64,000 bases of DNA from Acutalibacteraceae bacterium (GCA_045590395.1 JAZNQX010000063.1:5135-69134), one strand, 5' to 3'. Positions 37,001 through 54,834 are shown, counted from the stretch's first letter. Notes: generated by a model from the sequence alone, not told the origin. Translations and numbers: made by a program.

Positions 37001-39409
37001 ATGAAACAGGAAAGATATAATTTTACTGAAATTGAAAAGAAATGGCAGGATATATGGGATAAGGAACAGCCCTTTGCCGCAAAGAATGACTATACTTTGC
37101 CCAAGTTTTACGGCCTTGTTGAGTTCCCGTATCCGTCAGGTCAGGGTCTTCATGTAGGACATCCCCGTTCATATACCGCCATTGATATAGTTGCGCGTAA
37201 AAAGCGTCTTCAGGGCTATAATGTGCTTTATCCTATGGGTTGGGATGCTTTCGGTCTTCCTACCGAAAACTTTGCAATTAAGAATCATATACACCCTGAA
37301 ATTGTTACTAAAAACAATGTAGAAAACTTTAAGCGTCAGTTAAAATCACTTGGTTTTTCTTTTGACTGGAACAGAGAAATAAATACCACCGACCCTGCTT
37401 ATTATAAGTGGACACAGTGGATATTCTTAAAGCTTTTTGAAAACGGCCTTGCTTATAAAAAGAAGATGGCTGTTAATTGGTGTACCTCTTGTAAGTGCGT
37501 TCTTGCCAATGAAGAGGTTGTAAACGGTGTGTGCGAACGCTGCGGAAGTCAGGTCATACATAAAGAAAAAAGCCAGTGGATGCTTAAAATCACCGAGTAT
37601 GCAGGAAAGCTTATTGATGACCTTGCTACTGTTGATTTTATTGACAGAGTTAAAACTCAGCAGGAAAATTGGATAGGCCGTTCCTTCGGTACTCAGGTTA
37701 AATTCACCGCTACAACAGGTGATGTATTCGAAATATACACCACCCGTGCCGATACACTTTTCGGTGCTACCTATATGGTACTCTCTCCTGAGCATCCTCT
37801 TATTGATAAATGGTCTGATAAAATTGAGAATATGGATGAAGTTCTGTCTTACAAGGCTGAGGCTGCAAAGAAATCAGACTTTGAAAGAACCGAACTCGCT
37901 AAGGACAAGACAGGTGTATGCCTTAAGGGTGTTAAGGCTATAAACCCTGTAAACAATACCGAAATTCCCATTTTTATTTCAGATTATGTTCTTATTTCTT
38001 ATGGTACAGGCGCTATTATGGCAGTTCCCGCCCATGATACACGTGACTGGGAATTCGCCAAGAAATTCGACCTTCCTATTATTGAGGTTGTAAAGGGCGG
38101 CAATGTAGAGGAAGAAGCCTTTACCGACTGCGCTACCGGTACTATGGTAAATTCGGGCTTCCTTGACGGTATGAGTGTTGAGGATGCCAAGGTTGCTATT
38201 CAGAACTGGCTTAGTGATAAGGGAATAGGCGAGAGAAAAACAAACTATAAGCTTCGTGACTGGGTATTCTCCCGTCAGCGTTATTGGGGTGAGCCTATTC
38301 CTATGGTTCACTGTGACTGTTGCGGATATGTTCCTCTGCCCGAGAACGAGCTTCCTCTGCTTTTGCCTGAGGTAGAGTCTTACGAGCCTACCGATAACGG
38401 TGAATCTCCTCTTGCTAATATTACCGAGTGGATAAACACCACCTGTCCCAAATGCGGCGGCAAGGCTGTTCGTGAAACCGACACTATGCCTCAGTGGGCC
38501 GGATCTTCCTGGTACTTCCTTCGTTACTGTGACCCCAACAATGATAAAGAACTGGCTTCTAAAGAGGCTCTTGAATACTGGGGCCCCGTTGACTGGTATA
38601 ACGGCGGTATGGAGCATACAACTCTCCATCTGCTTTATAGCCGTTTCTGGCATAAATTCCTTTATGATATCGGTGTTGTACCCAATCCTGAGCCCTACGC
38701 TAAGCGTACAAGTCACGGTATGATACTGGGTGAGAACGGCGAAAAGATGTCTAAGTCCCGAGGCAACGTAATTAACCCCGACGATATTATAAATGAGTAC
38801 GGCGCCGACACAATGCGTCTTTACGAAATGTTTATAGGTGACTTTGAAAAGGCGGCTCCCTGGAGTACCTCGTCTATCAAGGGCTGTAAGCGTTTCCTTG
38901 ACAGAGTATGGGCGCTTAAGGAAAATGTTATCGACGGTGATTCATACAGAGCAGAACTCGAAAGCGAAATTCATAAAATGATTCGCAAGGTGAGTGAAGA
39001 TATTGAAAGCCTTAAAATGAATACCGCTATTGCTTCTATGATGTCTTTCATTAATACTGTAGGCAATACTATCAACAAGGCAGAATATAAGACTCTTCTT
39101 ATCCTCCTTAACCCCTTTGCTCCTCATATAACCGAGGAAATCTGGGAGGAACTGGGCTTTGAAGGCAGACTTAATCAGGCAAGCTGGCCTCAGTATGACG
39201 AGGCTAAGTGCATTGAGTCTACCGTTGAAATTGTTATACAGATTAACGGTAAACTTCGCGGCAGAATAAATATTCCTGCCGAAATAGGCGCAGATGATGC
39301 AATTGCCCTTGCAAAAGAAGCAGAAGGTATATCTGCACTGTTCGAGGGCAAAACTATTGTCAAAGAACTTTATGTACCTAAGAAGCTTGTTAATATCGTA
39401 GTAAAATAA
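37001..39409 (+). CDS. leuS: Leucine--tRNA ligase
   Basis: 802 aa: HVGH (HIGH) motif, KMSKS and a CP1 editing domain. There is no room for a T-box leader (18 nt after rsfS). Confidence 0.97.
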
Positions 39410-40088: not shown

Positions 40089-40117
40089 TTGACAACTTAA
40101 AAATATGGTGCTATACT
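40089..40117 (+). promoter_or_regulatory. Putative sigma-A promoter of T-box leader 1
   Basis: TTGACA, 17 nt, TATACT. Confidence 0.65.
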
Positions 40118-40136
40118 CTTTTCATACTTAATAAAA

Positions 40137-40400
40137 GCTGTGACGAAGACGGTCAAGAGTTTGTATTTTCAGAGAGCCGGTGGTTGCTGAAAACCGGTAA
40201 TAGAAATTCTTAAAAGACCCATCCCTTCCGAGCCGGAAGTCCGAAAGGTTATCCTAGTAGACGCTTCCCGTGATTGCTGCGTAAAGGCATAGGAATTGTT
40301 TGATTCCAAGAGTGGCGGAAAATTTCCGCAATTTGAGTGGTACCGCGAGTGTATTTTCACACCCGTCTCAAAGTTTCTTTGAGATGGGTGTTATTTTTTT
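40137..40400 (+). promoter_or_regulatory. T-box riboswitch leader 1; tentative specifier AUC (Ile) at 40221-40223
   Basis: K-turn base GCTGTGACGAAG...CTTCCGAGC, an AGAGAG bulge, the distal loop CCGGTGGTTGCTGAAAACCGG, the T-box AATTTGAGTGGTACCGCG (40330-40347), and a terminator at 40360-40390 plus a U-run. Confidence 0.9.
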
Positions 40401-40423
40401 AAAAACAGAAAGGGAGTAATTTT

Positions 40424-42691
40424 ATGAAAACCAATACTGCAAAAGAGCAACTATTAGAGATAGCTCTGCGAATTAGAGAAATGCGCGAGATTATGGGCTG
40501 GTCTATTGCAGAAATGGCTTCTAAAACGGAAGTCAGCGAGGAAAAATATATTTCTTACGAAAGTGCTGAAGCTGACATACCTTTTTCATTTATTCATAAG
40601 TGTGCATTGTGCTTTGATGTAGAGCTTACCGAGCTTTTAGAGGGACACTCTGCTCGTCTTTCAACCTATACTGTAACACGAAAGGGAAAGGGTCAGGCAA
40701 CCGCTAAAGAAGACGGCATCGATATTAAAAACCTTGCCCCTAAGTTCAGAGATAAAATTGCAGAGCCTTACTGGGTAAAATATGAATATTCTGCCGCTCA
40801 GCAAAATAAACCTATACAGCTTTCTACCCACTCGGGACAGGAATTTGACCTTATAATGAGCGGTTCTCTTAAGGTTCAGGTCGGAAATCATATTGAAATT
40901 TTAAACGAGGGCGACAGCATTTATTATAACAGCTCTACTCCTCACGGTATGATAGCTGTAGGCGGAAGTGACTGTGTTTTCTGTGCTGTTGTTCTTCCCG
41001 GCGAAGAAGTAAAGGAAGAAACGGTGCGTCGCAGTATTGTTTCTGCTAAAAATTCAGAAGCACTTGTTTGCGAAAAGTTCCTACAAACTACCGAAAACGA
41101 AAACGGCGAGCTTTTAGATATCAAATTTAAAAATACCGATGAATTCAACTTTGGCTTTGACATTGTTGACGGTATTGCAGATAAATATCCTGAAAAACTT
41201 GCTATGCTTCATATAGACAGAGAAAAGAAGGAAAGACGCTTTACCTTTAAGGATATAAAGCGTGCTTCTAATCAGTGCGCTAACTACTTTACTTCTCTCG
41301 GTATCAAGAGGGGAGATAAAGTAATGCTGGTGCTCAAACGTCATTATCAGTTCTGGTTCTGTATGGTGGCTCTTCACAAAATCGGCGCTGTGGCTATTCC
41401 TGCTACTAATCAGCTTAAAGAGCATGATTTTGAATACCGTTTCAATGCGGCAGGTGTTAACACCCTTGTTTGTACTGCCGACGGTGATACTGCAGAAATT
41501 GCCGAGCGCGCCGCCGCTAATTGTAAGAGCGTTAAAAACCTTGTGCTTGTTAACGGAAAACGCGAGGGTTGGCACGATTTTGACAGCGAATATAAACTGT
41601 TTTCGGGCAAATTTGAAAGAGAAGAAAACGCTTCAGCAGGTGAAGATACCGCCCTTATGTTCTTTACTTCGGGAACTACGGGTAATCCTAAAATGGCGGC
41701 TCATAAGCATACCTACGCTTTAGGCCATTTTGTTACCGCAAAATATTGGCATTGTTGCGAAAGAGACGGTTTACACCTTACTATTTCTGATACAGGTTGG
41801 GGTAAATCACTCTGGGGTAAGCTTTACGGTCAGTGGCTTTGCGAGGGCGCCGTATTTGTATACGACTTTGACCGCTTTGATGCAGATGAGATTCTGCCTA
41901 TGTTTGCAGAGTACAACATCACAACCTTCTGCGCACCTCCTACAATGCTTCGTATGCTTGTAAAGAGTGACCTTTCAAAATATGACCTTTCCTCAATCAA
42001 TCATATGACCACTGCAGGTGAGGCGCTGAATCCTGAAGTATTCCGTCAGTTTGAAGAAGCAACGGGACTTCAGATAATGGAGGGCTTCGGTCAGACCGAA
42101 ACTACCCTTACCATTGCAAACCTTTGCGGAACTACCCCCAAGGTTGGCGCTATGGGTAAGGCTTCTCCTCAGTATGATGTTGATATTGTTGACCTTGACG
42201 GTAATCCTGTTGCCGACGGTGAAGTAGGCGAAATAGTTGTTCATACTAAGGACGGCGTTCCCTGCGGACTGTTTAAAGAGTATTATCTTGACGAAGAAAA
42301 AACAAATGATGCTTGGCACGACGGTATGTACCATACAGGTGATACCGCTTGGCGAGATGAGGACGGATATTTCTGGTATGTAAGCCGTATTGATGATGTA
42401 ATTAAGTCTTCGGGTTACCGTATCGGACCCTTTGAAATTGAAAGCGTTATTATGGAACTTCCTTATGTTCTTGAATGCGGTGTATCTGCTGCACCCGACG
42501 AAGTAAGAGGTCAGGTTGTAAAGGCAAGTATCGTACTTGTTCCCGGAACCGCTCCTACAGAAGAGCTTAAGAAAGAAATCCAAAACTATGTAAAAGAGCA
42601 TACCGCACCTTACAAATATCCGAGAATAGTTGTGTTTAAGGACGAACTTCCCAAAACTATTAGCGGAAAAATTCAGCGAAATAAACTGTAA
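40424..42691 (+). CDS. Fusion protein: N-terminal XRE-type HTH + cupin domain (about aa 1-200) joined to an AMP-forming medium/short-chain acyl-CoA synthetase (ACSM/MACS-like)
   Basis: 755 aa. HTH: LRIREMREIMGWSIAEMASKTEVSEEKYISYE. Cupin: GQEFDLIMSGSLKVQVG...GDSIYYNSSTPHGM. ANL motifs: FFTSGTTGNPKMAAH, SDTGWGK, GFGQTE, YHTGDTAWRDEDGYFWYVSRIDDVIKSSGYRIGPFEIE and SGKIQR. Confidence 0.85.
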   Translation: MKTNTAKEQLLEIALRIREMREIMGWSIAEMASKTEVSEEKYISYESAEADIPFSFIHKCALCFDVELTELLEGHSARLSTYTVTRKGKGQATAKEDGIDIKNLAPKFRDKIAEPYWVKYEYSAAQQNKPIQLSTHSGQEFDLIMSGSLKVQVGNHIEILNEGDSIYYNSSTPHGMIAVGGSDCVFCAVVLPGEEVKEETVRRSIVSAKNSEALVCEKFLQTTENENGELLDIKFKNTDEFNFGFDIVDGIADKYPEKLAMLHIDREKKERRFTFKDIKRASNQCANYFTSLGIKRGDKVMLVLKRHYQFWFCMVALHKIGAVAIPATNQLKEHDFEYRFNAAGVNTLVCTADGDTAEIAERAAANCKSVKNLVLVNGKREGWHDFDSEYKLFSGKFEREENASAGEDTALMFFTSGTTGNPKMAAHKHTYALGHFVTAKYWHCCERDGLHLTISDTGWGKSLWGKLYGQWLCEGAVFVYDFDRFDADEILPMFAEYNITTFCAPPTMLRMLVKSDLSKYDLSSINHMTTAGEALNPEVFRQFEEATGLQIMEGFGQTETTLTIANLCGTTPKVGAMGKASPQYDVDIVDLDGNPVADGEVGEIVVHTKDGVPCGLFKEYYLDEEKTNDAWHDGMYHTGDTAWRDEDGYFWYVSRIDDVIKSSGYRIGPFEIESVIMELPYVLECGVSAAPDEVRGQVVKASIVLVPGTAPTEELKKEIQNYVKEHTAPYKYPRIVVFKDELPKTISGKIQRNKL

Positions 42692-42712: not shown

Positions 42713-42741
42713 TTGACAATATTCCAAAGTTGTGATACAAT
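42713..42741 (+). promoter_or_regulatory. Putative sigma-A promoter of T-box leader 2 (extended -10)
   Basis: TTGACA, 17 nt, (TGa)TACAAT. The -35 lies inside the near-palindrome AATATTGACAATATT. Confidence 0.6.
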
Positions 42742-42756
42742 AAGACGGATATTAAA

Positions 42757-43019
42757 GGCTTTGACGAAGAGTGCGCTTAATTCTTCCTTGCAGAGAAACG
42801 GTGGTTGGTGAAAACCGTTAGGTTGGAATTTTGTGTTTGTAGCTTCTGAGCCGGGGAGAAGAAAGTATTTAATATCAGTAGAACTCCTCCGTGATTGCTG
42901 CGTTAATGCATAGGAATTGTTAGATTCCAAGAGTGGCGGATTTCCGCAATTTGAGTGGTACCGCGGGTGTGAATATCGGCACTCGTCTCAAAGGCATTAC
43001 TTTGGGACGGGTGTTTTTT
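42757..43019 (+). promoter_or_regulatory. T-box riboswitch leader 2; putative specifier GUA (Val) at 42839-42841
   Basis: GGCTTTGACGAAG...CTTCTGAGCC K-turn helix, AGAGAA bulge, distal loop ACGGTGGTTGGTGAAAACCGT, T-box AATTTGAGTGGTACCGCG (42948-42965), and a terminator at 42980-43013 plus a U-run. Confidence 0.9.
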
Positions 43020-43047
43020 ACGTCCTAACGGAAATGGAGATAAACTT

Positions 43048-45336
43048 ATGGAACAGATTACAGGGCTTGATTTTAAAATCAAGGAAATGGCGGGGCGTAT
43101 CAGAGAGCTTCGCGAAATCGAAGGCTTAACAACGGAACAAATGGCAGAAAAAACCGCTGTTTCGGTGGCTGAGTATATAGAATGTGAAAATGGCAACAGT
43201 GACTTAAACTTTGCCTTTATTTACCGTTGCGCACTTGCTCTTAACGTAAATGTTACCGATATTATTGAGGGTTACAGCCCTACACTTAAATCATATACCG
43301 TTACCCGTGCAGGCTCAGGCCAGAAAATTGCACAGGCTCACGGTATGACCTATTATAACCTTGCTTATGCGTTTAAAAACCGTATTGCCGAGCCTCTTTA
43401 TGTTCGCAGTATATACAGTGAAGAAGCGCAGTCAAGGGATATTGAGCTAACTACCCACGCCGGTCAGGAGCTTGATATAATTATTGAAGGTCAGCTTATG
43501 GTTCAGGTAGGCGAGCATAAGGAAATACTGGGCCCCGGGGACAGCATTTACTATGACAGTGACGTTGCCCACGGTATGATAGCAATAGGCGGTAAGGACT
43601 GTCTTTTCTACGCTATTGTTTTAAACCCCACAGGTGAGCCTATTCCCGAGCTTTTACCCGCTAAAACTATTCTTGAGCCTAAAGCGGTTAAAAAGGATAA
43701 TAAAGAAAGAGTATACCATAAATATATAGATGTTACCGAGAACGATAACGGTACACCTGTTTCTGTAAAGTTTAAAAATACCGATAAATTCAATTTCGGT
43801 TTCGATGTTGTTGATGAAATTGCTCACAAAAGCCCTGAAAAACGTGCAATGCTTCATATATCAAGGGACGGTACAGAGCGTAGCTTTACCTTTAAGGATA
43901 TTGAAAAAGCTTCTAACCAGTGCGCCAACTACTTTAAATCTCTTGGTATTAAAAAGGGCGACCGCGTTATGTTGGTGCTTAAACGCCATTATCAGTTTTG
44001 GTTCTCAATTATTGCACTTAATAAGCTGGGTGCCATAGCTATACCTGCTACAAATCAACTTGTTGAACACGATTTTGATTACCGCTTTAAATCTGCAGGT
44101 GTTAGTACAATTATCTGTACTGCAGATGGTGATACAGCATATCAGGCTGAGAAAGCTGCTGAGAATAATCCTCAGCTTGTAAACAAGCTTATAGTTAATG
44201 GAGCGCGTGAAGGTTGGAGAAGCTTTGACGAGGAATATATCCTTTACAGCACCCACTATAAGCGTACCGAGGATACCGCCTGCGGTGACGATTTAATGCT
44301 TATGTACTTTACTTCGGGTACATCGGGCTATCCCAAAATTGCCGCACACAGCTATAAGTATCCTCTCGGACACTTCCATACTGCAAAATATTGGCACTGT
44401 GTTGACCCTGACGGACTTCACTTTACAATATCTGATACAGGCTGGGCAAAGGCTACCTGGGGCAAAATTTACGGTCAGTGGCTTTGCGAGGCAGGTATAT
44501 TCGTTTATGATTTTGACCGCTTTGATGCTGCAGAAATACTGCCCATGTTTGCAAAGCACAATATAACCACCTTCTGTGCTCCTCCTACAATGCTCCGTAT
44601 GCTTATAAAGCAGGATATAGCACAATATGATTTTTCCTCTGTTAAGCATATGACAACGGCAGGTGAGGCGCTTAATCCCGAGGTTTACCGTCAGTTTGAA
44701 AAAATTACAGGGCTTCAGATTCTCGAGGGCTTCGGCCAGACCGAAAGCACTATGATTATCGGTAATATGACGGGCGCACCCCATAAAATAGGTTCTATGG
44801 GTAAACCTGCACCTATATACGATGTTCATATTGTAGATAGCGATGGCAAAGATGTTCCTGCAGGTGAAACAGGTGAAATCGTTATAAATATTGAAAACGG
44901 TCTTCCTTGCGGACTGGCTACCTGTTACTACGGTGATGAAGAAAAAACAAAAGAAACCTGGCGCGACGGTTATTACCATACAGGAGATACCGCTTGGCGT
45001 GATGAAGACGGCTTCTACTGGTATGTAGGTCGCGTTGACGATGTTATTAAGTCTTCGGGCTACAGAATTGGGCCTTTCGAAATAGAAAGTGTTATTATGG
45101 AGCTTCCCTTCGTTCTTGAGTGCGGTGTATCTGCTGCACCGGATGAAGTAAGAGGTCAGGTTGTAAAGGCAAGTATTGTACTTGTTCCCGGAACCGAGCC
45201 TTCAGAAGAACTAAAGAAACAAATCCAGAAATATGTTAAGGATAAGACTGCACCTTATAAATATCCTCGTATAGTAGTATTTAAAGATAGTCTTCCTAAA
45301 ACTACCAGCGGAAAAATTCAAAGAAATAAGTTATAA
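43048..45336 (+). CDS. Paralogous fusion protein: XRE-type HTH + cupin joined to an AMP-forming acyl-CoA synthetase (ACSM/MACS-like)
   Basis: 762 aa with the same architecture as 40424-42691. The C-terminal roughly 120 aa are nearly identical to the paralogue, while the N-terminal sensor part and the middle of the synthetase are clearly diverged. Confidence 0.85.
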   Translation: MEQITGLDFKIKEMAGRIRELREIEGLTTEQMAEKTAVSVAEYIECENGNSDLNFAFIYRCALALNVNVTDIIEGYSPTLKSYTVTRAGSGQKIAQAHGMTYYNLAYAFKNRIAEPLYVRSIYSEEAQSRDIELTTHAGQELDIIIEGQLMVQVGEHKEILGPGDSIYYDSDVAHGMIAIGGKDCLFYAIVLNPTGEPIPELLPAKTILEPKAVKKDNKERVYHKYIDVTENDNGTPVSVKFKNTDKFNFGFDVVDEIAHKSPEKRAMLHISRDGTERSFTFKDIEKASNQCANYFKSLGIKKGDRVMLVLKRHYQFWFSIIALNKLGAIAIPATNQLVEHDFDYRFKSAGVSTIICTADGDTAYQAEKAAENNPQLVNKLIVNGAREGWRSFDEEYILYSTHYKRTEDTACGDDLMLMYFTSGTSGYPKIAAHSYKYPLGHFHTAKYWHCVDPDGLHFTISDTGWAKATWGKIYGQWLCEAGIFVYDFDRFDAAEILPMFAKHNITTFCAPPTMLRMLIKQDIAQYDFSSVKHMTTAGEALNPEVYRQFEKITGLQILEGFGQTESTMIIGNMTGAPHKIGSMGKPAPIYDVHIVDSDGKDVPAGETGEIVINIENGLPCGLATCYYGDEEKTKETWRDGYYHTGDTAWRDEDGFYWYVGRVDDVIKSSGYRIGPFEIESVIMELPFVLECGVSAAPDEVRGQVVKASIVLVPGTEPSEELKKQIQKYVKDKTAPYKYPRIVVFKDSLPKTTSGKIQRNKL

Positions 45337-45360: not shown

Positions 45361-46026
45361 ATGATAGGTAAAAAAAGACTTACGCTTTTTTGCGGACATT
45401 ACGGAAGCGGTAAAACAAATATAGCCGTTAATGTTGCAATTAAGCTTAAAGAGAGCTATAATAATATCGCCCTTGCTGACCTTGACATAGTAAATCCTTA
45501 TTTCAGAACAAAGGACAGCAGTGAAGAGCTTAAAAGCAAGGGTATAAGGCTTATCTGTTCTGAGTATGCAAACTCTAATGTAGATATTCCGGCTCTCCCA
45601 CAGGATGTGTACGCCATTACCGATGATAAAACACTTAAATGTGTACTTGATATCGGCGGTGATGACAGAGGAGCACTGGTTCTGGGCAGAATTTCGGATA
45701 AAATTTCAGAGGAAAATGACTTCGAAATGCTTATGGTTATAAATTCGTTTCGTCCCTTAACCAGAGATACCGAGTCTTTAATAGAGGTTTTTTCTGAAAT
45801 AGAGGCTGCGGCAAAAATTAAATTTACAGGCCTTGTTAACAATTCAAACCTTGGTGAAGAAACCACGGCAGAGGATGTTTTAAGCTCTGTCAACTATGCT
45901 AATGATATATCAAAAGCCACAGGCCTTCCTGTAGTTATGACCTGTGTAAAAGAAGACCTGTATGAGTCTTTAAAGGACAAGATACCTAATCTTTTGGGAC
46001 TTAAACTGCAGAAGAAAATTTTGTAG
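45361..46026 (+). CDS. P-loop NTPase of unknown function (SIMIBI-like; Walker A GHYGSGKT)
   Basis: 221 aa: FCGHYGSGKTNIAVNVA, DLDIVNPYFR and GGDDRG. It sits between the acyl-CoA synthetase and the oxidoreductase genes. Confidence 0.6.
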   Translation: MIGKKRLTLFCGHYGSGKTNIAVNVAIKLKESYNNIALADLDIVNPYFRTKDSSEELKSKGIRLICSEYANSNVDIPALPQDVYAITDDKTLKCVLDIGGDDRGALVLGRISDKISEENDFEMLMVINSFRPLTRDTESLIEVFSEIEAAAKIKFTGLVNNSNLGEETTAEDVLSSVNYANDISKATGLPVVMTCVKEDLYESLKDKIPNLLGLKLQKKIL

Positions 46027-46082
46027 ATTCCACAAATTAAATTTGTGCCTTCGAATATATAATTTGCTAAGGAGTGTTTATT

Positions 46083-46289
46083 TTGGCAAAATTAACATTT
46101 AAAACCGACAACTGTAAGGGTTGCGGCCTTTGCGTAGATGCCTGTCCCAAGCAGGTACTTATTCTCGCAAATGACAAAATCAACAAAAAGGGACATCACC
46201 CTGTAGAAGCGGCAAATATTGACGCTTGTATTGGCTGTGCTTTCTGTGCAACAATGTGTCCTGACTGTATCATTAAGGTAGAAAGGTAG
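46083..46289 (+). CDS. 2-oxoacid:ferredoxin oxidoreductase delta subunit (2x[4Fe-4S] ferredoxin)
   Basis: Two CxxCxxCxxxCP motifs (CKGCGLCVDACP, CIGCAFCATMCP). The TTG at 46083 lies 8 nt after AAGGAG and is preferred over the ORF-track GTG, which overlaps the RBS. Confidence 0.8.
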   Translation: MAKLTFKTDNCKGCGLCVDACPKQVLILANDKINKKGHHPVEAANIDACIGCAFCATMCPDCIIKVER

Positions 46290-47362
46290 TGAGTAAAGTG
46301 GCAGATAAAGTTTTGATGAAGGGTAACGAAGCTATTGCCGAAGCCGCTATTGTTGCAGGCTGTCGTCATTACTTCGGTTATCCTATAACTCCCCAGACAG
46401 AAATTGCCGCTTATATGGCAAAACGTATGCCCAAAATCGGCGGAACCTTCCTTCAGGCTGAAAGTGAAATCGCCGCTATCAATATGGTATACGGCGTTGC
46501 TTCTACCGGTAAGCGTGTTATGACCTCTTCTTCAAGCCCCGGAGTTTCCCTTAAGGGTGAAGGCCTTTCTTATATTGCAGGTGCTGACCTTCCGTCCCTT
46601 ATAGTAAACGTTCAGCGCGGTGGCCCCGGCCTTGGCGGTATTCAGCCCTCTCAGTCTGACTATTTTCAGGCTACAAAGGCAGGCGGACACGGCGACTTTA
46701 AAATGATAGTTCTTGCCCCCGCCTCTGTTCAGGAAATGGCTGACCTTACTGTTAAGGGCTTTGAACTCGCTGACAAATACCGTATGACATCTATGATTCT
46801 TGCCGACGGTACTATGGGACAGATGATGGAGCCTGTTTCTCTCGATTTTGAGGTATCAGAGAAAATAGATAAGCCCTGGGCTACCACAGGAACCAAAATG
46901 GAGCGCGAGCATAATATTGTTAACTCTCTTTTCCTTGTTCCCGAAGAACTTGAAAAATCAAACTTTGAGCGTTTTGAACGCTATAAGTACATAGAGGAAA
47001 ACGAAACCATGTGGGAAGAGTATCTTATGGACGATGCAGAAATTTGTATTGCCGCATTCGGTATTGCCGCCCGTGTTTCTAAAAACGCTATAAATGAGGC
47101 AAGAAAGCAGGGTATTAAGGTTGGTCTTATCCGTCCTATTACTCTCTGGCCTTTCCCCACAAAAGCATTTAAAGAGGCTGCCGAAAAGGTAAGCAGTATT
47201 ATATCTGTTGAGCTTTCTATGGGACAGATGATAGAGGACGTTCGTCTTGCAAGTGAGAGCAAGGTTCCCGTAACCCTTTGCAACCGTGCAGGCGGTATGA
47301 TTCCTTCTCCCGAACAAGTACTCGACGCAATTAAAGAAGCAGCAAAAGGAGGCGCAAAATAA
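46289..47362 (+). CDS. 2-oxoacid:ferredoxin oxidoreductase alpha subunit (VorB/KorA type)
   Basis: 357 aa: LMKGNEAIAEAAIVAGCRHYFGYPITPQTEI is typical of the OFOR alpha N-terminus. Confidence 0.88.
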   Translation: MSKVADKVLMKGNEAIAEAAIVAGCRHYFGYPITPQTEIAAYMAKRMPKIGGTFLQAESEIAAINMVYGVASTGKRVMTSSSSPGVSLKGEGLSYIAGADLPSLIVNVQRGGPGLGGIQPSQSDYFQATKAGGHGDFKMIVLAPASVQEMADLTVKGFELADKYRMTSMILADGTMGQMMEPVSLDFEVSEKIDKPWATTGTKMEREHNIVNSLFLVPEELEKSNFERFERYKYIEENETMWEEYLMDDAEICIAAFGIAARVSKNAINEARKQGIKVGLIRPITLWPFPTKAFKEAAEKVSSIISVELSMGQMIEDVRLASESKVPVTLCNRAGGMIPSPEQVLDAIKEAAKGGAK

Positions 47363-48117
47363 TGGTAGTTTTTGATAAACCGCATGCACTTACCGATGTG
47401 CCTATGCATTATTGCCCCGGCTGTACTCACGGTATTGTTCACCGTCTTGTTGCTGAGGTTATTGACGAACTCGGTATTGAGGGCAAAACCATTGGTATAG
47501 CCCCTGTTGGCTGTTCCGTTATGGCGTATAATTATTTCGGTTGTGATATGATAGAGGCCGCTCATGGACGCGCACCTGCCGTTGCTACAGGTGTTAAGCG
47601 CGCTGACCCTGAAAATCATATAGTATTTACCTATCAGGGTGACGGTGACCTTGCTTCTATCGGTATGGCAGAAACCGTACACAGTGCCGCAAGAAATGAA
47701 AACATAACCGTTATATTCATTAACAATGCTATATACGGTATGACAGGCGGACAGATGGCTCCGACCTCTCTTCCCGGTCAGGTAACACAGACCTCACCCT
47801 ACGGCAGAGATGTAAACCATTGCGGCTATCCCGTTAAGGTTTGTGAAATGCTCTCAAAGCTTGACGGCCCTGAGTATCTCGAAAGAGTCACAGTTAACAA
47901 TGTTAAAAATGTAAAGAACGCTAAGAAGGCAATTAAAAAGGCTTTCCAGAATCAGATAGACGGTAAGGGATTTTCTCTTGTTGAGGTTGTGTCAAGTTGT
48001 CCTACCAACTGGGGTATGACACCAAAACAGGCACTTGAGTGGATTGACGAGAAAATGATTCCTTATTATCCGCTTGGCGTTTATAAAGACAGAAGCGCAG
48101 AAAAGGGGGAAGAATAA
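47362..48117 (+). CDS. 2-oxoacid:ferredoxin oxidoreductase beta subunit (TPP-binding)
   Basis: YCPGCTHG and the TPP motif GDGD...NNAIYGMTGGQ. Confidence 0.88.
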   Translation: MVVFDKPHALTDVPMHYCPGCTHGIVHRLVAEVIDELGIEGKTIGIAPVGCSVMAYNYFGCDMIEAAHGRAPAVATGVKRADPENHIVFTYQGDGDLASIGMAETVHSAARNENITVIFINNAIYGMTGGQMAPTSLPGQVTQTSPYGRDVNHCGYPVKVCEMLSKLDGPEYLERVTVNNVKNVKNAKKAIKKAFQNQIDGKGFSLVEVVSSCPTNWGMTPKQALEWIDEKMIPYYPLGVYKDRSAEKGEE

Positions 48118-48650
48118 TGGCTACTAAACAGTTTTTGTTTTCGGGATTTGGCGGTCAGGGTATTCTTTTCGCCGGTAAGTTTATGGCTTATAAAGGCCTT
48201 ATTGATGATAAGCAGGTAAGCTGGCTTCCGTCATACGGCCCCGAAATGCGCGGCGGTACAGCAAGCTGTAGCGTAATTGTCAGTGACGAGCCCGTGGGTT
48301 CTCCCATAGTATCAAAACCTGATGTGCTTATCGCTATGAATCTTCCTTCTCTTGATAAATATGAGTCTACCGTAAAGAAAGGCGGTATGATTTTCCTTGA
48401 CTCAACCCTTATTGAGCGCAAGGTAGAAAGAGATGACGTTAAGGTTTTCTATATTCCTGCCACAAAGCTGGCAAGTGATAATAATATGCCTACCCTTGCT
48501 AATATGATTATAGTAGGTAAGGTATTAAGTGAACTTAACGATTTCCAAAAAGAAAGCGTTGACGCTGCTCTTTCAAAGGTTATTTCTGCAAAACGTGCAG
48601 ATATGGCTGATATAAACCGCAAGGCTATGCAGATAGGCGCTGAAAACTAA
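48117..48650 (+). CDS. 2-oxoacid:ferredoxin oxidoreductase gamma subunit
   Basis: [14 protein letters not shown]...[10 protein letters not shown]. Confidence 0.85.
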
Positions 48651-48671: not shown

Positions 48672-49736
48672 ATGAATATTTCTATTACTAAAACTGCCTG
48701 TCCTAAAGAAAAACCCGACAGCAGTGTACTGGGCTTTGGAAAATATTTTACCGACCATATGTTTATGATGGATTATTCAAGAGATAAGGGTTGGTATAAT
48801 GCAAGAATTGTTCCCTTTGAGAATATTTCTTTGCATCCTGCCTCTACTGTTCTTCATTACGGCAGTGAGATTTTTGAGGGCCTTAAGGCTTATAGACGCA
48901 AAGACGGTAAGGTACAGCTTTTCCGTCCTATAGAGAATATCCGTCGTATGAACAGCTCTGCAGAAAGACTTTGTCTGCCTCAGATTCCTGAAGAGGACGC
49001 TATGCAGGCTCTTAAAACCTTTGTCGCTTTAGAGCAGGACTGGACTCCCTCTGCGGCAGGTACTTCACTTTATCTTCGTCCCTTTATGTTCGGTAATGAC
49101 GAAACCTTAGGTGTTCACGCTGTACATAACGCAACCTTTGTTATTATTGCTTCACCTGTAGGCAGCTACTATAAAGAGGGCATTAACCCGGTTAAAATTA
49201 TGATAGAAGACCAGGATGTTCGTGCTGTGCGCGGAGGTACCGGTTATGCTAAATGTGGCGGTAACTATGCAGCAAGTAACAGAGCAGGTGAGCGCGCTGA
49301 ACAGCAGGGCTATTCACAGGTACTCTGGCTTGATGGTGTTGAGAGAAAGTATATTGAAGAGGTTGGCGCTATGAACGTAATGTTCAAAATCAACGGCGAA
49401 ATCGTTACTCCTATGCTTTCGGGCTCAATTCTCCCCGGTATTACAAGAAAATCCTGCCTTGAGGTGCTAAGAAGCGAGGGCTATAAGGTAAGTGAAAGAC
49501 TGCTTAGCATTGATGAGCTTGAAGAGGCTATGAACAACGGTACTCTTGAAGAGGCTTGGGGTTGCGGAACTGCTGCTGTAGTTTCTCCTATTGGTGAACT
49601 TTGCTACAAGGGTGTAAAGCACCAGGTTAGCGGCGGCAAAATCGGTGAAGTTACTCAGCACCTTTACGATACCCTTACATCTATTCAGTGGGGTAATGCT
49701 GAGGATAAGTTCAACTGGACCGAGCAAATCGACTAA
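48672..49736 (+). CDS. ilvE: Branched-chain amino acid aminotransferase (fold type IV)
   Basis: 354 aa: HYGSEIFEGLKAYR, LYLRPFMFG, GGTGYAKCGGNYA and GITR. Confidence 0.92.
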   Translation: MNISITKTACPKEKPDSSVLGFGKYFTDHMFMMDYSRDKGWYNARIVPFENISLHPASTVLHYGSEIFEGLKAYRRKDGKVQLFRPIENIRRMNSSAERLCLPQIPEEDAMQALKTFVALEQDWTPSAAGTSLYLRPFMFGNDETLGVHAVHNATFVIIASPVGSYYKEGINPVKIMIEDQDVRAVRGGTGYAKCGGNYAASNRAGERAEQQGYSQVLWLDGVERKYIEEVGAMNVMFKINGEIVTPMLSGSILPGITRKSCLEVLRSEGYKVSERLLSIDELEEAMNNGTLEEAWGCGTAAVVSPIGELCYKGVKHQVSGGKIGEVTQHLYDTLTSIQWGNAEDKFNWTEQID

Positions 49737-49750
49737 TTTTAAAAAAGTGG

Positions 49751-49779
49751 TTGACAAACTAAAATTGCGGTGATATAAT
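49751..49779 (+). promoter_or_regulatory. Putative sigma-A promoter of T-box leader 3 (extended -10)
   Basis: TTGACA, 17 nt, (TGa)TATAAT. Confidence 0.65.
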
Positions 49780-49796
49780 TATCTCAAATTTTTAAA

Positions 49797-50049
49797 TGCG
49801 ATGAAGGAATTATTCTTTATATGCGCTTGTTTTCAGAGAGTCGGCGGTTGGTGAGAGCCGATACGGTAGTATAAAGTAAGTCTCGTTCCGGAGCAGAACT
49901 GCTGAAACACAGTAAGCGGTTACGGCGTGCCCCGTTATCATGGCAAAAGGCTTGTTGGAGCCTTACTGAGTGACCGTTTATACGGTAATTAGGGTGGTAC
50001 CGCGAATATTATTCGTCCCTGAAACTATTATGGTTTCAGGGGCTTTTTA
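49797..50049 (+). promoter_or_regulatory. T-box riboswitch leader 3; putative specifier CUC (Leu) at 49882-49884
   Basis: TGCGATGAAGGAA...TTCCGGAGCA K-turn helix, AGAGAG bulge, distal loop TCGGCGGTTGGTGAGAGCCGA, T-box AATTAGGGTGGTACCGCG (49987-50004), and the terminator CCCTGAAAC...GTTTCAGGG plus a U-run. Confidence 0.9.
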
Positions 50050-50079
50050 TTTGTTTTAGTTTAGAAAGGAAGAATTATT

Positions 50080-51459
50080 ATGAGAAAAGTAAGAATTGCA
50101 GATACAACTCTTTGCAGTGGTGAAGTAAGCTACAGTTTCAAGGAAAAAATTGAAATTGCAAGACAGCTTGAAAATCTAAAAATTGATATAATAGAGCTTG
50201 GCGCTATTGAAAACGCAAGAACTGATATTTTACTTGTAAAAACTATTTCTTCTTTTGTTAAATCAGGTATCCTCTCTGTTGCAGGCGGTATGACAAAAGA
50301 AAGCATAGACAATGCTGCCTCCGCGCTTTCAAATGCGGTTAATAAAAGGATAAGAATTGAACTTCCCGTGTCCCCCGTGGGTATGGAATATGTTTGTCAT
50401 AAAAAGCCTGATAAAATGCTTCCCTTTATTGAATCTCTTGTTGGTGCCGCAAAAGAAAGGGTAGAGGATGTCGAGTTCTGTGCCATTGATGCTACCCGTG
50501 CTGAAGAAGACTTTCTTAAATCTGCCATCAAAACTGCTGTAAATGCCGGTGCTACATCGGTTTCGGTTTATGACAGCGCCGCAGAAACAATGCTGCCCGA
50601 TGAGTTTGCTGATTTTGCCCGTAAGGTTTGCAAAAAGGCAGATGTAGAGGTTGGCGCATTTTGCGATAACAAAAACGGTATGGCAGTAGCCGATGCCGTA
50701 CTTGCTGTAAGAAATGGTGTTTCTGTTGTTAAGACAGCAGTAGGTACAGGTGCCGTTCCTCTTGAAACCTTTGCAGAAATGATAAATAACTGCGGTAATT
50801 CCTTTGGTATATATGCAGATATAAATTATACAAATTTACACCGTATTATAAAACAGATAAACTGGGTTAAAGAAAACTCAAAGGATGGCAAAAACAGTGT
50901 AAGCAGTGAAAGTATAGATAATACCGTCGCTCTTGACAAAGATTCTGATCGCACCGCTGTTGCTACTGCAGTGCTGAAACTCGGCTATGATTTAAGTGAT
51001 GAGGACAGCGGTAAGGTTTATGATGAATTTGTGCGTGTGGCAGAAAAGAAAAATGTTGGCTATAAAGAGCTTGATGCTATAGTTGCAAGCGTAGCCTTGC
51101 AGGTTCCTGCCACATATAAGCTTATCAATTATGTTGTAAACACAGGTAATATTATTTCTTCAAGCTCTCAGGTTGCCCTTGAAAAAGAAGGCAAAACCTA
51201 TCAGGGTGTTTCTATCGGTAGCGGTCCTATTGATGCGGCTTTCCTTGCTATTGAGCAGATAATAGGAACCCATTTTGAACTGGATGATTTCCAGATTCAG
51301 TCGGTAACAGAAGGTAAAGAGGCTATGGGTAGCGCTCTTGTAAAACTGAGAGCAAACGGAAAGCTTTATTCGGGTAACGGTATTTCCACCGACATTATAG
51401 GCGCAAGTATTCGCGCATATCTTAGTGCTGTAAACAAGATAGTTTACGAGGAGGCATAA
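50080..51459 (+). CDS. 2-isopropylmalate synthase (LeuA/HMGL) homologue with substituted catalytic residues but a retained C-terminal LeuA regulatory domain
   Basis: 459 aa. DTTLCSGE replaces DTTLRDGEQ, AFCDNKNG replaces VHCHNDLG, DSAA replaces DTVG, and GTGAVPLE replaces GIGERAGN. The C-terminal GSGPIDAAFLAIEQI...GKEAMGSALVKL is the LeuA_dimer/R domain. Confidence 0.75.
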   Translation: MRKVRIADTTLCSGEVSYSFKEKIEIARQLENLKIDIIELGAIENARTDILLVKTISSFVKSGILSVAGGMTKESIDNAASALSNAVNKRIRIELPVSPVGMEYVCHKKPDKMLPFIESLVGAAKERVEDVEFCAIDATRAEEDFLKSAIKTAVNAGATSVSVYDSAAETMLPDEFADFARKVCKKADVEVGAFCDNKNGMAVADAVLAVRNGVSVVKTAVGTGAVPLETFAEMINNCGNSFGIYADINYTNLHRIIKQINWVKENSKDGKNSVSSESIDNTVALDKDSDRTAVATAVLKLGYDLSDEDSGKVYDEFVRVAEKKNVGYKELDAIVASVALQVPATYKLINYVVNTGNIISSSSQVALEKEGKTYQGVSIGSGPIDAAFLAIEQIIGTHFELDDFQIQSVTEGKEAMGSALVKLRANGKLYSGNGISTDIIGASIRAYLSAVNKIVYEEA

Positions 51460-51461
51460 AA

Positions 51462-53966
51462 ATGAAATTCTCTTTTTCTACAAAAGGATGGCATAATATA
51501 TCCTTTGAAGAATTTTGTGAAATAGCAAAAGACCTTAAGTTTGAGGGAATTGAACTTCATAATATAAATAATCCTCTTTTTACTGATAAGGACGGCGCTT
51601 TTCACGAGCATACAGCGGCAGGAACAATAAGAAAGCTTTACGAAAAGAAGCTTTCTTTACCCTGCATTGATACTATTTGCAATATAGCAGATAATGATGA
51701 ATTTGATAAAAGCGTGGATGAAATTCTTGCCTGTATTGATATTGCAAAGCGCCTTAAAATACCCTTTATAAGACTTCACGCCGGTATGGCAGAGGATATC
51801 GAAAAGGCTACAGCCTGCGTGGTTTCTATTATTGAAAAAACCATATCCGATGCCGAGGAAAACGGGGTTACATTGCTTCTTGAAACCTCGGGTATCTTCT
51901 CTAATACCGAGATTCTCAGAGATACTCTTGAACTCTTTGCAAGTGATAGTCTTGCGGCTTCGCTTGATATGTATTCTGCATATTTCATAGGTAAAGAAGA
52001 TGCTGAACAGATTATTAAAAATCTGGGTGCTTATGTAAAACACGTTCATGTAAGGGACGCGCAAAAAGTTAACGGTAAATTGGAAAATTGTCTTATCGGT
52101 GAGGGCGAAATGCCTATTAACGATATGATGCTGGCTCTTCGCAGTGTAAATTATGACGGATATTTCTCACTGATATGGGACCCCTCATGGTGTGAGGAGC
52201 TTGACGATATGGAGATTATATTCTCTCATTTTGTCAACTTTATGAAGCAGTATGGTGATATTTCTAAAAACGAAACTACACTTTACTACAACAAAACTCA
52301 TACGGGAAAATTTGTGTGGAAAAAGGATTTACTTATTGACCTTACCTTCCCACAGGTGCTTGACAGAATGGCAGAGGAATTTCCTGACCAGTATGCATTT
52401 AAGTACACCACCCTTGATTATACCCGTACCTACAGCCAGTTCAGAGATGACGTTGATACCTTTGCCAGAGCCCTTGTTTCTATGGGCGTAAAGGCAGGTA
52501 CCAAGGTAGCTGTATGGGCTTCGAATGTGCCTCAGTGGTATATTTCCTTCTGGGCGGCTACAAAAATAGGTGCCGTACTTGTTACGGTTAACACCGCTTA
52601 TAAAATTCACGAGGCTGAGTATCTGCTTAAGCAGTCGGATACCCATACCCTTATTATGACTCAGGGAAGCAAGGATACAAACTACGGCGAAATTATAGCC
52701 CGTCTTTGTCCTGAGCTTGAAACTATGAAGTCAGGAAGCGCTCTTCACAGCAAAAAACTTCCTTTCCTTCGTAATGTAATTACCGTAGGCTTTAAACAGA
52801 AGGGCTGTATGACCTGGAATGACGCCTTGGCACGTTCTATTGATACCCCTGTGGAAGAGGTTTACAGAATGGCGGCGGCTGTTGATAAGGACGACGTTTG
52901 TAATATGCAGTATACTTCGGGTACTACAGGATTTCCTAAGGGTGTTATGCTTACTCACTATAATGTTGTAAATAACGGAAAGTATATCGGCGACCATATG
53001 GATCTTTCTACCGCAGACAGAATGATGATACAGGTGCCTATGTTCCATTGCTTTGGTATGGTACTTTCTATGACCGCGTCTATGACTCATGGTACAACTA
53101 TGTATCCTATGCCGTATTTTTCACCAAAGCCTTCTCTCGCTTGTGTTCATAATGACCATTTTCCCGCCTTTATCGGCGTACCTACCATGTTTATTGCTAT
53201 GATGCAGCACCCTGATTTTGAAAAAACCGACTTTTCTTATATGCGTGTGGGCATTATGGCGGGCTCTAACTGTCCTGCCGACCTTATGAAACAGGCAACA
53301 GAGGTTATGAATATGAAGGAAATTGTATCTGTTTACGGTCAGACCGAAGCGTCACCCGGTTGCACTATGAGTAGCTGGTATGATTCTCTTGAGGTTAGAA
53401 CCGAAACCGTAGGCAGCGCATTTGCTAATGTTGAGTGTAAGATAATCGACCCCGAAACAGGGGAGGACTGCCCTGACGGAGTTAACGGTGAGTTTGTTGC
53501 CCGTGGCTATAATATAATGAAGGGCTATTATAAAATGCCTAAGGCTACAGCGGCGGCTATTGATAAGGACGGTTGGCTTCACACAGGCGACCTAGCTTGC
53601 AGACGCCCTGACGGAAACTATCTTATAACAGGTCGTCTTAAGGATATGATTATCAGAGGCGGAGAAAACATTTATCCTAAGGAAATTGAGGAATTTATAT
53701 TCACTAATCCTAAGGTAAGTGATGTTCAGGTTATAGGTGTTCCCGATAAGCAGTACGGCGAAGAAATTATGGCCTGTATTATTCTTAAAGAGGGCGAAAC
53801 TATGACCGAAGAAGAAATAAAGGGTTATATTTCCGCCAATATGGCGCGTCATAAGGTTCCTCGCTATATTGATTTTGTAGATAAGTTCCCAATGAATGCG
53901 GCAGGTAAAATACTTAAGTACAAAATGAGAGAGGAAGCCGCCAAAAAACTGGGACTTGATGAGTAA
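51462..53966 (+). CDS. Fusion protein: xylose-isomerase-like TIM barrel (sugar phosphate isomerase/epimerase family, about aa 1-270) joined to an AMP-dependent acyl-CoA synthetase/ligase
   Basis: 834 aa. The N-terminus has FEGIELHN...LLLET...HVHVRD TIM-barrel features. The C-terminus has YTSGTTGFPKGVMLTH, VYGQTEASP, TGDLACRRPDGNYLITGRLKDMIIRGGENIYPKEIE and AGKILK. Confidence 0.8.
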   Translation: MKFSFSTKGWHNISFEEFCEIAKDLKFEGIELHNINNPLFTDKDGAFHEHTAAGTIRKLYEKKLSLPCIDTICNIADNDEFDKSVDEILACIDIAKRLKIPFIRLHAGMAEDIEKATACVVSIIEKTISDAEENGVTLLLETSGIFSNTEILRDTLELFASDSLAASLDMYSAYFIGKEDAEQIIKNLGAYVKHVHVRDAQKVNGKLENCLIGEGEMPINDMMLALRSVNYDGYFSLIWDPSWCEELDDMEIIFSHFVNFMKQYGDISKNETTLYYNKTHTGKFVWKKDLLIDLTFPQVLDRMAEEFPDQYAFKYTTLDYTRTYSQFRDDVDTFARALVSMGVKAGTKVAVWASNVPQWYISFWAATKIGAVLVTVNTAYKIHEAEYLLKQSDTHTLIMTQGSKDTNYGEIIARLCPELETMKSGSALHSKKLPFLRNVITVGFKQKGCMTWNDALARSIDTPVEEVYRMAAAVDKDDVCNMQYTSGTTGFPKGVMLTHYNVVNNGKYIGDHMDLSTADRMMIQVPMFHCFGMVLSMTASMTHGTTMYPMPYFSPKPSLACVHNDHFPAFIGVPTMFIAMMQHPDFEKTDFSYMRVGIMAGSNCPADLMKQATEVMNMKEIVSVYGQTEASPGCTMSSWYDSLEVRTETVGSAFANVECKIIDPETGEDCPDGVNGEFVARGYNIMKGYYKMPKATAAAIDKDGWLHTGDLACRRPDGNYLITGRLKDMIIRGGENIYPKEIEEFIFTNPKVSDVQVIGVPDKQYGEEIMACIILKEGETMTEEEIKGYISANMARHKVPRYIDFVDKFPMNAAGKILKYKMREEAAKKLGLDE

Positions 53967-53969
53967 TCG

Positions 53970-54785
53970 GTGATAAAAATGGTTCAAAACAAATTTTATA
54001 CAGTAGATTCTCACTGTCATATCTATCCCGAAAAAATTGCTCAAAAGGCTGTAGAGGGTACTGATAATTTTTATAGTACAACTGCGGCAGGTCTGGGTAC
54101 GGTTTCTGACCTTTTGCATATGGGAAGCGAGGCAGGGGTTGACCACTTTATTGTTCAGTCTGTGGCAACAACGCCAAAGCAGGTAAAAAGCATTAACGAG
54201 TTTATTTCCAAAACCGTTTCAGAGCATAATGGTAAATTAACCGGTCTTGGCACACTTCATCCCGAAAGTGAAGACATAAAGGGTGATGTTGAGCATCTTT
54301 TAGAGTTGGGCCTTAAAGGCGTTAAGCTTCACCCCGACATACAGCGCTTCGAAAGCGACTGTGAAAGGTGTATGCAAATCTACGAGCTGTGTGAAAAGAA
54401 TAATCTTGTATTACTAATGCACACAGGTGATTACAGGTACGACTATTCAAACCCTAACAGAATAATTCCAATACTGGAAACCTTTAAAAAGCTGACCTTT
54501 ATCGGCGCACACCTTGCAGGTTGGTCGGTGTGGCAAGAAGCCTATGAAAAGCTGTCATATTATGATAATCTTTATGTAGACTGTTCATCTTGCTTTGGCT
54601 TTACCGAAAGGGAGGAAGTATACGCCCTTATGAAGAAATACGGGGCTGACAGAATACTTTTCGGTACCGATTATCCTATGTGGTCACCGAAAAGCGAAAT
54701 GGAAACATTTTTATCCCTTGATTTCACCGATGAAGAAAAAGCAAAAATCTTAGGTCTTAATGCTAAAAAAATATTTAATTTATAG
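53970..54785 (+). CDS. Amidohydrolase-2 (metal-dependent TIM-barrel hydrolase/decarboxylase) family protein
   Basis: DSHCHIYPE near the N-terminus, then ...KLHPD..., ...MHTGD... and FGTDYPMW. The start may instead be the ATG at 53979 (RBS GGTGA). Confidence 0.75.
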   Translation: MIKMVQNKFYTVDSHCHIYPEKIAQKAVEGTDNFYSTTAAGLGTVSDLLHMGSEAGVDHFIVQSVATTPKQVKSINEFISKTVSEHNGKLTGLGTLHPESEDIKGDVEHLLELGLKGVKLHPDIQRFESDCERCMQIYELCEKNNLVLLMHTGDYRYDYSNPNRIIPILETFKKLTFIGAHLAGWSVWQEAYEKLSYYDNLYVDCSSCFGFTEREEVYALMKKYGADRILFGTDYPMWSPKSEMETFLSLDFTDEEKAKILGLNAKKIFNL

Positions 54786-54790
54786 GGCAG

Positions 54791-54834
54791 AAAAGCCGCG
54801 AAGTAAAAAAACTTCGCGGCTTTTTTATTTTTTT
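54791..54834 (+). terminator. Strong intrinsic terminator closing the Leu-T-box operon
   Basis: AAAAGCCGCGAAGT-AAAAAA-ACTTCGCGGCTTTT followed by TTATTTTTTT. Confidence 0.85.

Follow-up and report, generated by a model that had tools for sequence, protein, structure and literature searches.

Within a 64,000-nucleotide stretch of DNA from an Acutalibacteraceae bacterium (GCA_045590395.1, JAZNQX010000063.1:5135-69134; the whole stretch is called the window below), a leucine T-box riboswitch precedes three genes, which encode a LeuA-like protein, an 834-aa fusion of a triose-phosphate isomerase (TIM) barrel with an acyl-coenzyme A (acyl-CoA) ligase, and an amidohydrolase. We consider it probable that this leucine (Leu) operon belongs to a system under T-box control in which branched-chain fatty acids are salvaged to make branched-chain amino acids, and that it forms the leucine arm. 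Three T-box units follow one another, with isoleucine (AUC), valine (GUA) and leucine (CUC) specifiers respectively and an acyl-CoA ligase in each; the Leu unit comes last. An earlier reading of the window, made from the sequence only, held that this combination of proteins fits no leucine pathway known to it. That view has to be given up, as the combination matches the isovalerate carboxylation route, and the sibling Ile-AUC and Val-GUA units clarify the logic.

In the proposed pathway, uncharged tRNA-Leu(GAG) would cause read-through at the CUC T-box. The ligase domain of the 834-aa protein would then convert isovalerate, its presumed substrate, with ATP and CoA to isovaleryl-CoA; the VorDBAC oxidoreductase, presumably running in the reductive direction, would carboxylate isovaleryl-CoA with reduced ferredoxin and CO2 to 2-oxoisocaproate; and IlvE would transaminate 2-oxoisocaproate to leucine. 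In the sibling arms, 2-methylbutyrate would give isoleucine and isobutyrate would give valine, by way of MbcS-like ligases and the same Vor and IlvE. More tentatively, the LeuA-like protein might bind leucine via its LeuA regulatory domain and restrain the translationally coupled ligase. No simpler route than these three steps from acid to amino acid would account for just the genes that are conserved; the gene content, the linkage and the match of codon to ligase are direct observations. Both in the window and in related loci, an acid-activating enzyme, a 2-oxoacid:ferredoxin oxidoreductase and a branched-chain aminotransferase are encoded together, in conserved synteny. The catabolic direction was also considered and was rejected, since the predicted induction upon tRNA-Leu starvation argues against it.

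The leucine unit and its T-box

The Leu unit starts with a sigma-70-type promoter at 49751-49779 (all elements and genes of the cluster are on the + strand). It has the form TTGACA-17-TATAAT with a TG extension (extended -10), agrees with the consensus at 12 of 12 positions and is the sole such match in the 47-57 kb region. The T-box leader RNA follows at 49792-50023 and matches RF00230 over the full model (1-219), with 133.3 bits where the gathering score is 93 (E = 2e-29). The covariance-model alignment (cmscan) puts the leucine codon CUC, at 49882-49884, in the specifier position, and the next base is G. The leader terminator consists of a 13-pair stem (50015-50043) plus a T-run to 50050. 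The antiterminator helix UAGGGUGGUACCGCG ends at ∼50020 and the terminator stem starts at 50015, an overlap from which the terminator and the 3' arm of the antiterminator are predicted to be mutually exclusive. The T-box is an ordinary member of its class, and T-box biology predicts read-through on uncharged tRNA-Leu.

The three open reading frames (ORFs) behind the leader are tightly packed, with gaps of 2 and 3 nt, and are followed by an intrinsic terminator at 54789-54826 (16-pair stem with 7 GC pairs, T-run to 54836), which closes the whole three-unit cluster. The sequence-only reading had described a clean transcription unit. Its promoter, CUC T-box, three genes and terminator all proved to be where it had placed them, but the unit is not isolated: a search for intrinsic terminators found none between the upstream ilvE and the Leu unit. 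Over 40.1-54.8 kb the only intrinsic terminators are those of the three T-boxes and the final one, so that the Leu unit is the last third of a ∼14.7 kb cluster.

Specifier codons match the ligases they precede

A scan with the fusion protein, using one genome per species, gave at least 591 candidate matches. The locus analyses reported here cover the best 80 of these, in which the fusion is full-length and 64–86% identical, and which all come from gut or rumen metagenome-assembled genomes (MAGs); the carriers are all uncultured gut or rumen Clostridia. Among the 120 best relatives, identity is 77–92%; these come from Acutalibacteraceae, Oscillospiraceae and Ruminococcus MAGs, where the protein is annotated only as 'AMP-binding protein'.

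A hidden Markov model made from the three window leaders (nhmmer) found 85 T-box matches in the related loci, and 81 of these could be read out after alignment. The first point to note is that a leucine codon is present in all 54 T-boxes read before the LeuA-like gene (CUC in 53, CUG in 1), with G or A as the base after the specifier in 50 of the 54. Leaders before Ile-type ligases carry AUC (11/11) and leaders before Val-type ligases carry GUA (15/15). The remaining leader, in locus L026, is a CUC T-box in front of the genes for a P-loop protein and Vor, and the match of codon to ligase thus holds in 81 of 81 T-boxes. In L026 this single CUC T-box fronts P-loop, Vor, IlvE, LeuA-like, TIM::ligase and Amidohydro_2 genes as one unit. 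The sequence-only reading had proposed that control by tRNA-Leu means a raised leucine supply and, as its simplest idea, that isovalerate is activated by the ligase to feed the oxidoreductase encoded nearby. Comparative genomics supports these ideas, through the 54 Leu-codon T-boxes, the linkage to Vor and IlvE described below, and L026.

The single CUG is found in the Leu-arm T-box at L016:8310-8553, a synonymous specifier switch at the position where the other 53 have CUC.

Gene neighbourhood in related genomes

The LeuA-like gene is directly 5' of the TIM::ligase gene in every locus with enough upstream DNA. A block of P-loop, Vor and IlvE genes adjoins this pair in ∼43 of the 80 loci. The block may be upstream, downstream or on the opposite strand, with at least three gene orders, which indicates that the linkage has outlived rearrangement. 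When the flanking ORFs were clustered, the only families that recurred in more than seven loci were P-loop, Vor, IlvE, LeuA-like, amidohydrolase and MbcS-like ligase. No leuB, leuC or leuD was present among the flanking ORFs of the 80 loci, and the same clustering placed no fatty-acid synthesis genes in the conserved neighbourhood.

The assignment of Vor and IlvE to a unit varies: they are in the Val unit in the window, in the Leu unit in L026, and after the Leu-arm ligase in the L050/L059 clade. The order in that clade is LeuA-like, TIM::ligase, IlvE, P-loop, Vor, a stand-alone helix-turn-helix (HTH)-cupin gene and an MbcS-like ligase without an N-terminal domain.

The isoleucine and valine units and the shared enzymes

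The isoleucine unit (40089-42691) comprises a promoter, a T-box at 40131-40373 with the specifier AUC at 40221-40223, and a ligase gene at 40424-42691. The valine unit begins with the same elements (42713-45336; promoter, T-box at 42752-42993, specifier GUA at 42839-42841, ligase gene at 43048-45336). Both ligases are ∼760 aa long and have an N-terminal XRE-type HTH and a cupin domain, followed by the acyl-CoA synthetase. Their top NCBIfam family is MbcS, with 428 bits, which is under the equivalog cut-off of 850. Between the two of them identity is 64%, whereas it is 25% between the Val-arm and Leu-arm ligases.

Purified MbcS selectively activates 2-methylbutyrate and isobutyrate and acts poorly on isovalerate (PMC10026030), a preference that accounts for the different ligase family in the Leu arm. 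We infer isovalerate as the substrate of the Leu-arm ligase from two things, the Leu T-box and the linkage to Vor and IlvE.

The HTH-cupin module of the Ile-arm and Val-arm enzymes has the look of a transcription regulator joined to the ligase that it may regulate. In the clade that has no T-box (L050:9017-9577; L059:17459-19138), the module is a separate 186-aa gene just 5' of a ligase without it.

Behind the Val-arm ligase the gene order is P-loop, 2x[4Fe-4S], VorB, thiamine pyrophosphate (TPP) subunit, gamma subunit and IlvE. The small ferredoxin ORF (46074-46289, 71 aa) is a VorD-like 2x[4Fe-4S] protein. VorB (46289-47362; NCBIfam NF005507) scores 548 bits, above the cut-off of 399, and the TPP subunit (47362-48117) and gamma subunit (48117-48650) of the 2-oxoacid:ferredoxin oxidoreductase were assigned by Pfam. 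The branched-chain amino acid aminotransferase IlvE is encoded at 48672-49736 (NF009897, 483 bits, above the cut-off of 307).

A LeuA-like protein without catalytic residues

The protein assignments of the sequence-only reading, a degenerate LeuA/HMGL-fold protein, a TIM barrel::acyl-CoA ligase fusion of 834 aa and an Amidohydro_2 protein, were all confirmed by the domain searches and motif comparisons that follow. It had also conceded that isovalerate activation leaves the TIM barrel, the LeuA-like protein and the amidohydrolase unexplained. We agree, although inference narrows their possible roles.

The first gene of the Leu unit (50080-51459, 459 aa) matches PF00682 HMGL-like with 116 bits and PF08502 LeuA_dimer with 108 bits. 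Its best NCBIfam LeuA score is 277.6 bits, about half of the cut-off of 532 (NF002086). The LeuA motif DTTLRDGEQ has become DTTLCSGE, HCHND has become FCDNK and PED has become AID, so that the residues at the catalytic and metal positions are C12, S13, I136, F194 and D196. Compared with seven full-length LeuA homologues, GERAGN and a ∼30-residue segment of subdomain I with SGIHQ are deleted; subdomain I is missing in all LeuA-like members compared. The metal ligands Asp13, His194 and His196 are present in 0 of 73 LeuA-like orthologues, and the Arg is kept in 19 of the 73. In distant clades the barrel retains R12, E13 and E136. For comparison, substitution of R80 or E218 abolishes the activity of the Mycobacterium tuberculosis isopropylmalate synthase (PMC10464499).

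This is not a gene in decay. The barrel has a ratio of nonsynonymous to synonymous substitution rates (dN/dS) of 0.05-0.10 and the C-terminal domain one of 0.01-0.07, which indicates strong purifying selection. The C-terminal LeuA_dimer, or regulatory (R), domain is the best conserved part, with a mean column identity of 0.80 versus 0.58 for the barrel and 0.50 for the other part, and the motifs GxGPIDA, VTEG and STDI of this domain are common to the LeuA-like protein and true LeuAs. In an exhaustive HMMER search, ∼120 short-form clusters (at 50% identity) rank before the true LeuAs (∼500 aa, ∼35% identity). Judged by its residues, the LeuA-like protein is not a synthase but a conserved pseudoenzyme.

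What might such a protein do? The regulatory domain of isopropylmalate synthase holds the leucine-binding site (PMC9860122), and it is the equivalent domain that is best conserved here. From this we propose, tentatively, that the LeuA-like protein senses leucine and holds the ligase in check, docking on the degenerate TIM barrel. When solved structures were searched with only the R domain, one marginal match was returned. Taken a step further, entry of isovalerate would be under double control, with tRNA-Leu charging acting on the RNA and free leucine acting on the protein via the docked pseudo-LeuA, and the HTH-cupin domains would be the counterpart sensors of the Ile and Val arms; this extended scheme is speculative, and we put it forward as a possibility rather than an expectation.

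Two further LeuA homologues of ∼500 aa, P0505 and P0508, also have damaged motifs (DSTLCEGE with HSQ and DTTLCDGE with RAY, respectively). LeuA may have degenerated more than once.

The TIM::ligase fusion and the amidohydrolase

The fusion ORF (51462-53966, 834 aa) consists of AP_endonuc_2 (residues 20-237), AMP-binding (301-690) and AMP-binding_C (741-816) domains. The ligase domain (52332-53966), of the adenylate-forming type, matches PF00501 with 297 bits and PF13193 with 63 bits. Its core motifs, YTSGTTGFPKG and the C-terminal GKILK, are invariant, and the mean column identity of the domain over 80 homologues is 85%.

The xylose-isomerase-like TIM-barrel domain (51462-52256) matches PF01261 with 78 bits. 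No stand-alone TIM homologue was found in another context; all of the matches are truncated or split copies of the fusion behind a LeuA-like gene. The AlphaFold2 model of the domain is confident (predicted local distance difference test, pLDDT, 89.5). Structure prediction, which the sequence-only reading had suggested, gave no specific assignment, the matches of both the TIM and the amidohydrolase models being generic, uncharacterised or distant. For the TIM model, Foldseek returned generic family members only (probability 1.0, template-modelling (TM) score 0.70-0.78), and searches of the sequence against solved structures gave weak matches only (Art22, E = 2e-5). From the strands of the model and knowledge of the family, we take the Glu-Asp-His-Glu metal ligands to lie at the ends of strands 5 to 8. 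In the window protein E141, D169 and H196 are present and the canonical E238 is Ile, which leaves the metal-ligand set incomplete. Over the 80 sequences, E238 is replaced by Val or Ile in 32 and D169 by Asn in 25.

Loss of E238 is almost confined to lineages in which the LeuA-like protein has lost its Arg (24:5 versus 1:26), and it also accompanies the presence of the amidohydrolase (26/30 versus 22/45), both being counts that ignore kinship. Placed on the ligase tree, the losses amount to about 5 and 8 changes. The pattern is one of coupled degeneration, in which the LeuA-like Arg was lost first and the TIM Glu238 almost only in those lineages, a loss that goes along with the amidohydrolase.

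The third gene of the Leu unit encodes an Amidohydro_2 protein (53970-54785, 271-aa ORF; PF04909, 115 bits against a cut-off of 26). Its start is probably the ATG at 53979 rather than the GTG at 53970, because M4 is invariant and the homologues are 268 aa long. The metal-binding residues H15, H17, K119/H121, H151, H181 and D234 are invariant. The closest structure in the Foldseek search is the uncharacterised 3IRS (TM 0.81), and decarboxylases are 14–17% identical. The gene is found 3' of the fusion in 49 loci and is missing from 27 others with enough space to hold it, and it is thus dispensable in about a third of the genomes. By its intact residues, the protein is probably an accessory, active metallo-enzyme.

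Points against the salvage pathway, and alternatives

Several observations weigh against the leucine salvage reading. In the window, Vor and IlvE are inside the Val unit, and a response to leucine limitation alone would therefore depend on basal expression or an internal promoter. Vor was not found within the retrieved DNA in ∼35 of the 80 loci, and the L050/L059 clade has no T-box detectable with Rfam at either the gathering threshold or E ≤ 0.01. The best NCBIfam matches of the Leu-arm ligase are of the medium- and long-chain fatty-acid type (PRK12583, 644 bits, below the cut-off of 832). Finally, E31, E141, H196, D199 and E214 of the TIM barrel are nearly invariant which, together with the intact metal site of the amidohydrolase, suggests chemistry beyond the three-step pathway.

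The last of these points leads to the alternative that survives best, though we think it unlikely, namely that the ligase is the last step of a longer conversion in which the TIM barrel, the LeuA-like barrel (in the lineages that keep Arg and Glu) and/or the amidohydrolase are enzymes. They could convert some other gut metabolite to the ligase substrate, or proofread butyryl or valeryl acyl-adenylates or acyl-CoAs, which would otherwise give norvaline or norleucine via Vor and IlvE. The near-invariant polar residues of the TIM pocket and the complete ligand set of the amidohydrolase are what such a scheme would lead one to expect, as is the retention of R12, E13 and E136 in the distant LeuA-like barrels. 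The loss of E238 tracks both the LeuA-like Arg loss and the amidohydrolase, which would fit one activity being passed between proteins; however, the kinship-blind counts weaken both associations. Moreover, the Asp and His-x-His metal ligands are lacking throughout the LeuA-like family and subdomain I in all members compared, the TIM barrel of the window is itself without E238, and the 27 loci without an amidohydrolase would have to manage without that step. The generic Foldseek matches of both barrels mean that no reaction can be named.

Far less probable is the idea that the isovaleryl-CoA made by the module primes the synthesis of iso-branched membrane fatty acids, in the manner of MbcS in Staphylococcus aureus, and does not go into leucine. 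MbcS-type ligases do feed FabH (PMC10026030), and plsX is present elsewhere in the window. However, the Leu specifier of the controlling T-box, a sensor of tRNA-Leu charging, the conserved link to IlvE and Vor, and the conserved neighbourhood free of fatty-acid synthesis genes all speak against it. It is scarcely credible that the first gene is a leuA, working or in decay, that remains from a classical leu operon under T-box control: leuA-first operons under Leu T-boxes are common, the HMGL-like and LeuA_dimer architecture is that of LeuA and LeuA models are the top NCBIfam matches, but the scores reach about half of what the equivalog cut-offs demand (278 versus 532), every catalytic motif checked is lost from the window protein and the metal ligands from the whole family, leuB, leuC and leuD occur in 0 of 80 loci, and a dN/dS of 0.01-0.10 excludes decay. 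On these grounds we rejected both the working leuA (by its motifs, metal ligands and sub-cut-off scores) and the decaying pseudogene (by dN/dS).

Relation to known systems

The chemistry of the proposed salvage pathway is classical. According to PMC7356843, which cites Allison 1966 and related papers, carboxylation of isovalerate to leucine was established in rumen bacteria by labelling, together with its isobutyrate/valine and 2-methylbutyrate/isoleucine counterparts. The chemistry we infer and the habitat (rumen and hindgut Clostridia) are the same; the difference is that the rumen pathway is physiology known from labelling, whereas the cluster described here is known from its genes. In the literature searched we found no description of the cluster, the pathway genes, dedicated ligases, T-box gating or the design of one T-box per ligase, TIM::ligase or HTH-cupin::ligase fusions, or a conserved pseudo-LeuA, and the public collections put no specific name on any of these proteins.

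The leaders belong to the same riboswitch class, working by termination and antitermination, as those of other Firmicutes genes for branched-chain amino acids (the Bacillus subtilis ilv-leu leader and the leuS, ileS and valS leaders), and CUC, AUC and GUA are canonical T-box specifiers. What differs is that ligases and a pseudoenzyme are controlled here, and not synthetases, de novo enzymes or transporters. The LeuA-like protein has the barrel fold, the LeuA_dimer domain and the R-domain motifs of LeuA; unlike LeuA, it lacks the Arg, Asp, Glu, His-x-His, GERAGN and subdomain I and is ∼50 residues shorter. MbcS, the S. aureus methylbutyryl-CoA synthetase, is the best family for the Ile and Val arms, and its preference for alpha-branched acids fits those arms. 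However, the scores are sub-cut-off, the Ile and Val ligases carry the additional HTH-cupin N-terminus, and the Leu-arm ligase is in another subfamily.

A conceptual parallel for the proposed sensor is offered by HisZ-HisG, in which a dead paralogue of histidyl-tRNA synthetase is the histidine-sensing regulatory subunit. In both cases a dead relative of a pathway enzyme would have been kept as the end-product sensor of the first committed enzyme. The two are not related in sequence, and for the pseudo-LeuA both the complex and the regulation are only proposed.

That ruminococci and their relatives require branched-chain volatile fatty acids was recognised ∼60 years ago, and ruminant nutrition makes use of this. 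The cluster offers a concrete, testable gene set, with one ligase per amino acid, a cognate T-box for each, and shared Vor and IlvE. If the salvage pathway is correct, T-box riboswitches control salvage from fermentation acids, and if the sensor idea is correct as well, this would be a new case of a pathway enzyme recycled as a regulatory pseudoenzyme. Metabolic models may at present score the carriers as branched-chain amino acid auxotrophs, and inclusion of the cluster would improve them.

Other features of the cluster and its surroundings

The P-loop protein of 221 aa (45361-46026) has a weak CbiA/ParA match and always accompanies Vor; an NCBIfam search with it gave no match. In at least 37 related loci, as in the window, its gene comes before those for Vor, and the protein may be an accessory or maturation factor of the Vor oxidoreductase. 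The cluster lies between leuS/tRNA-Lys and the mraZ cell-division cluster, and the remainder of the 64-kb window consists of housekeeping genes. The leuS gene (37001-39409) adjoins the cluster; Rfam sees no T-box 5' of it, yet there are three T-boxes within the next 11 kb.

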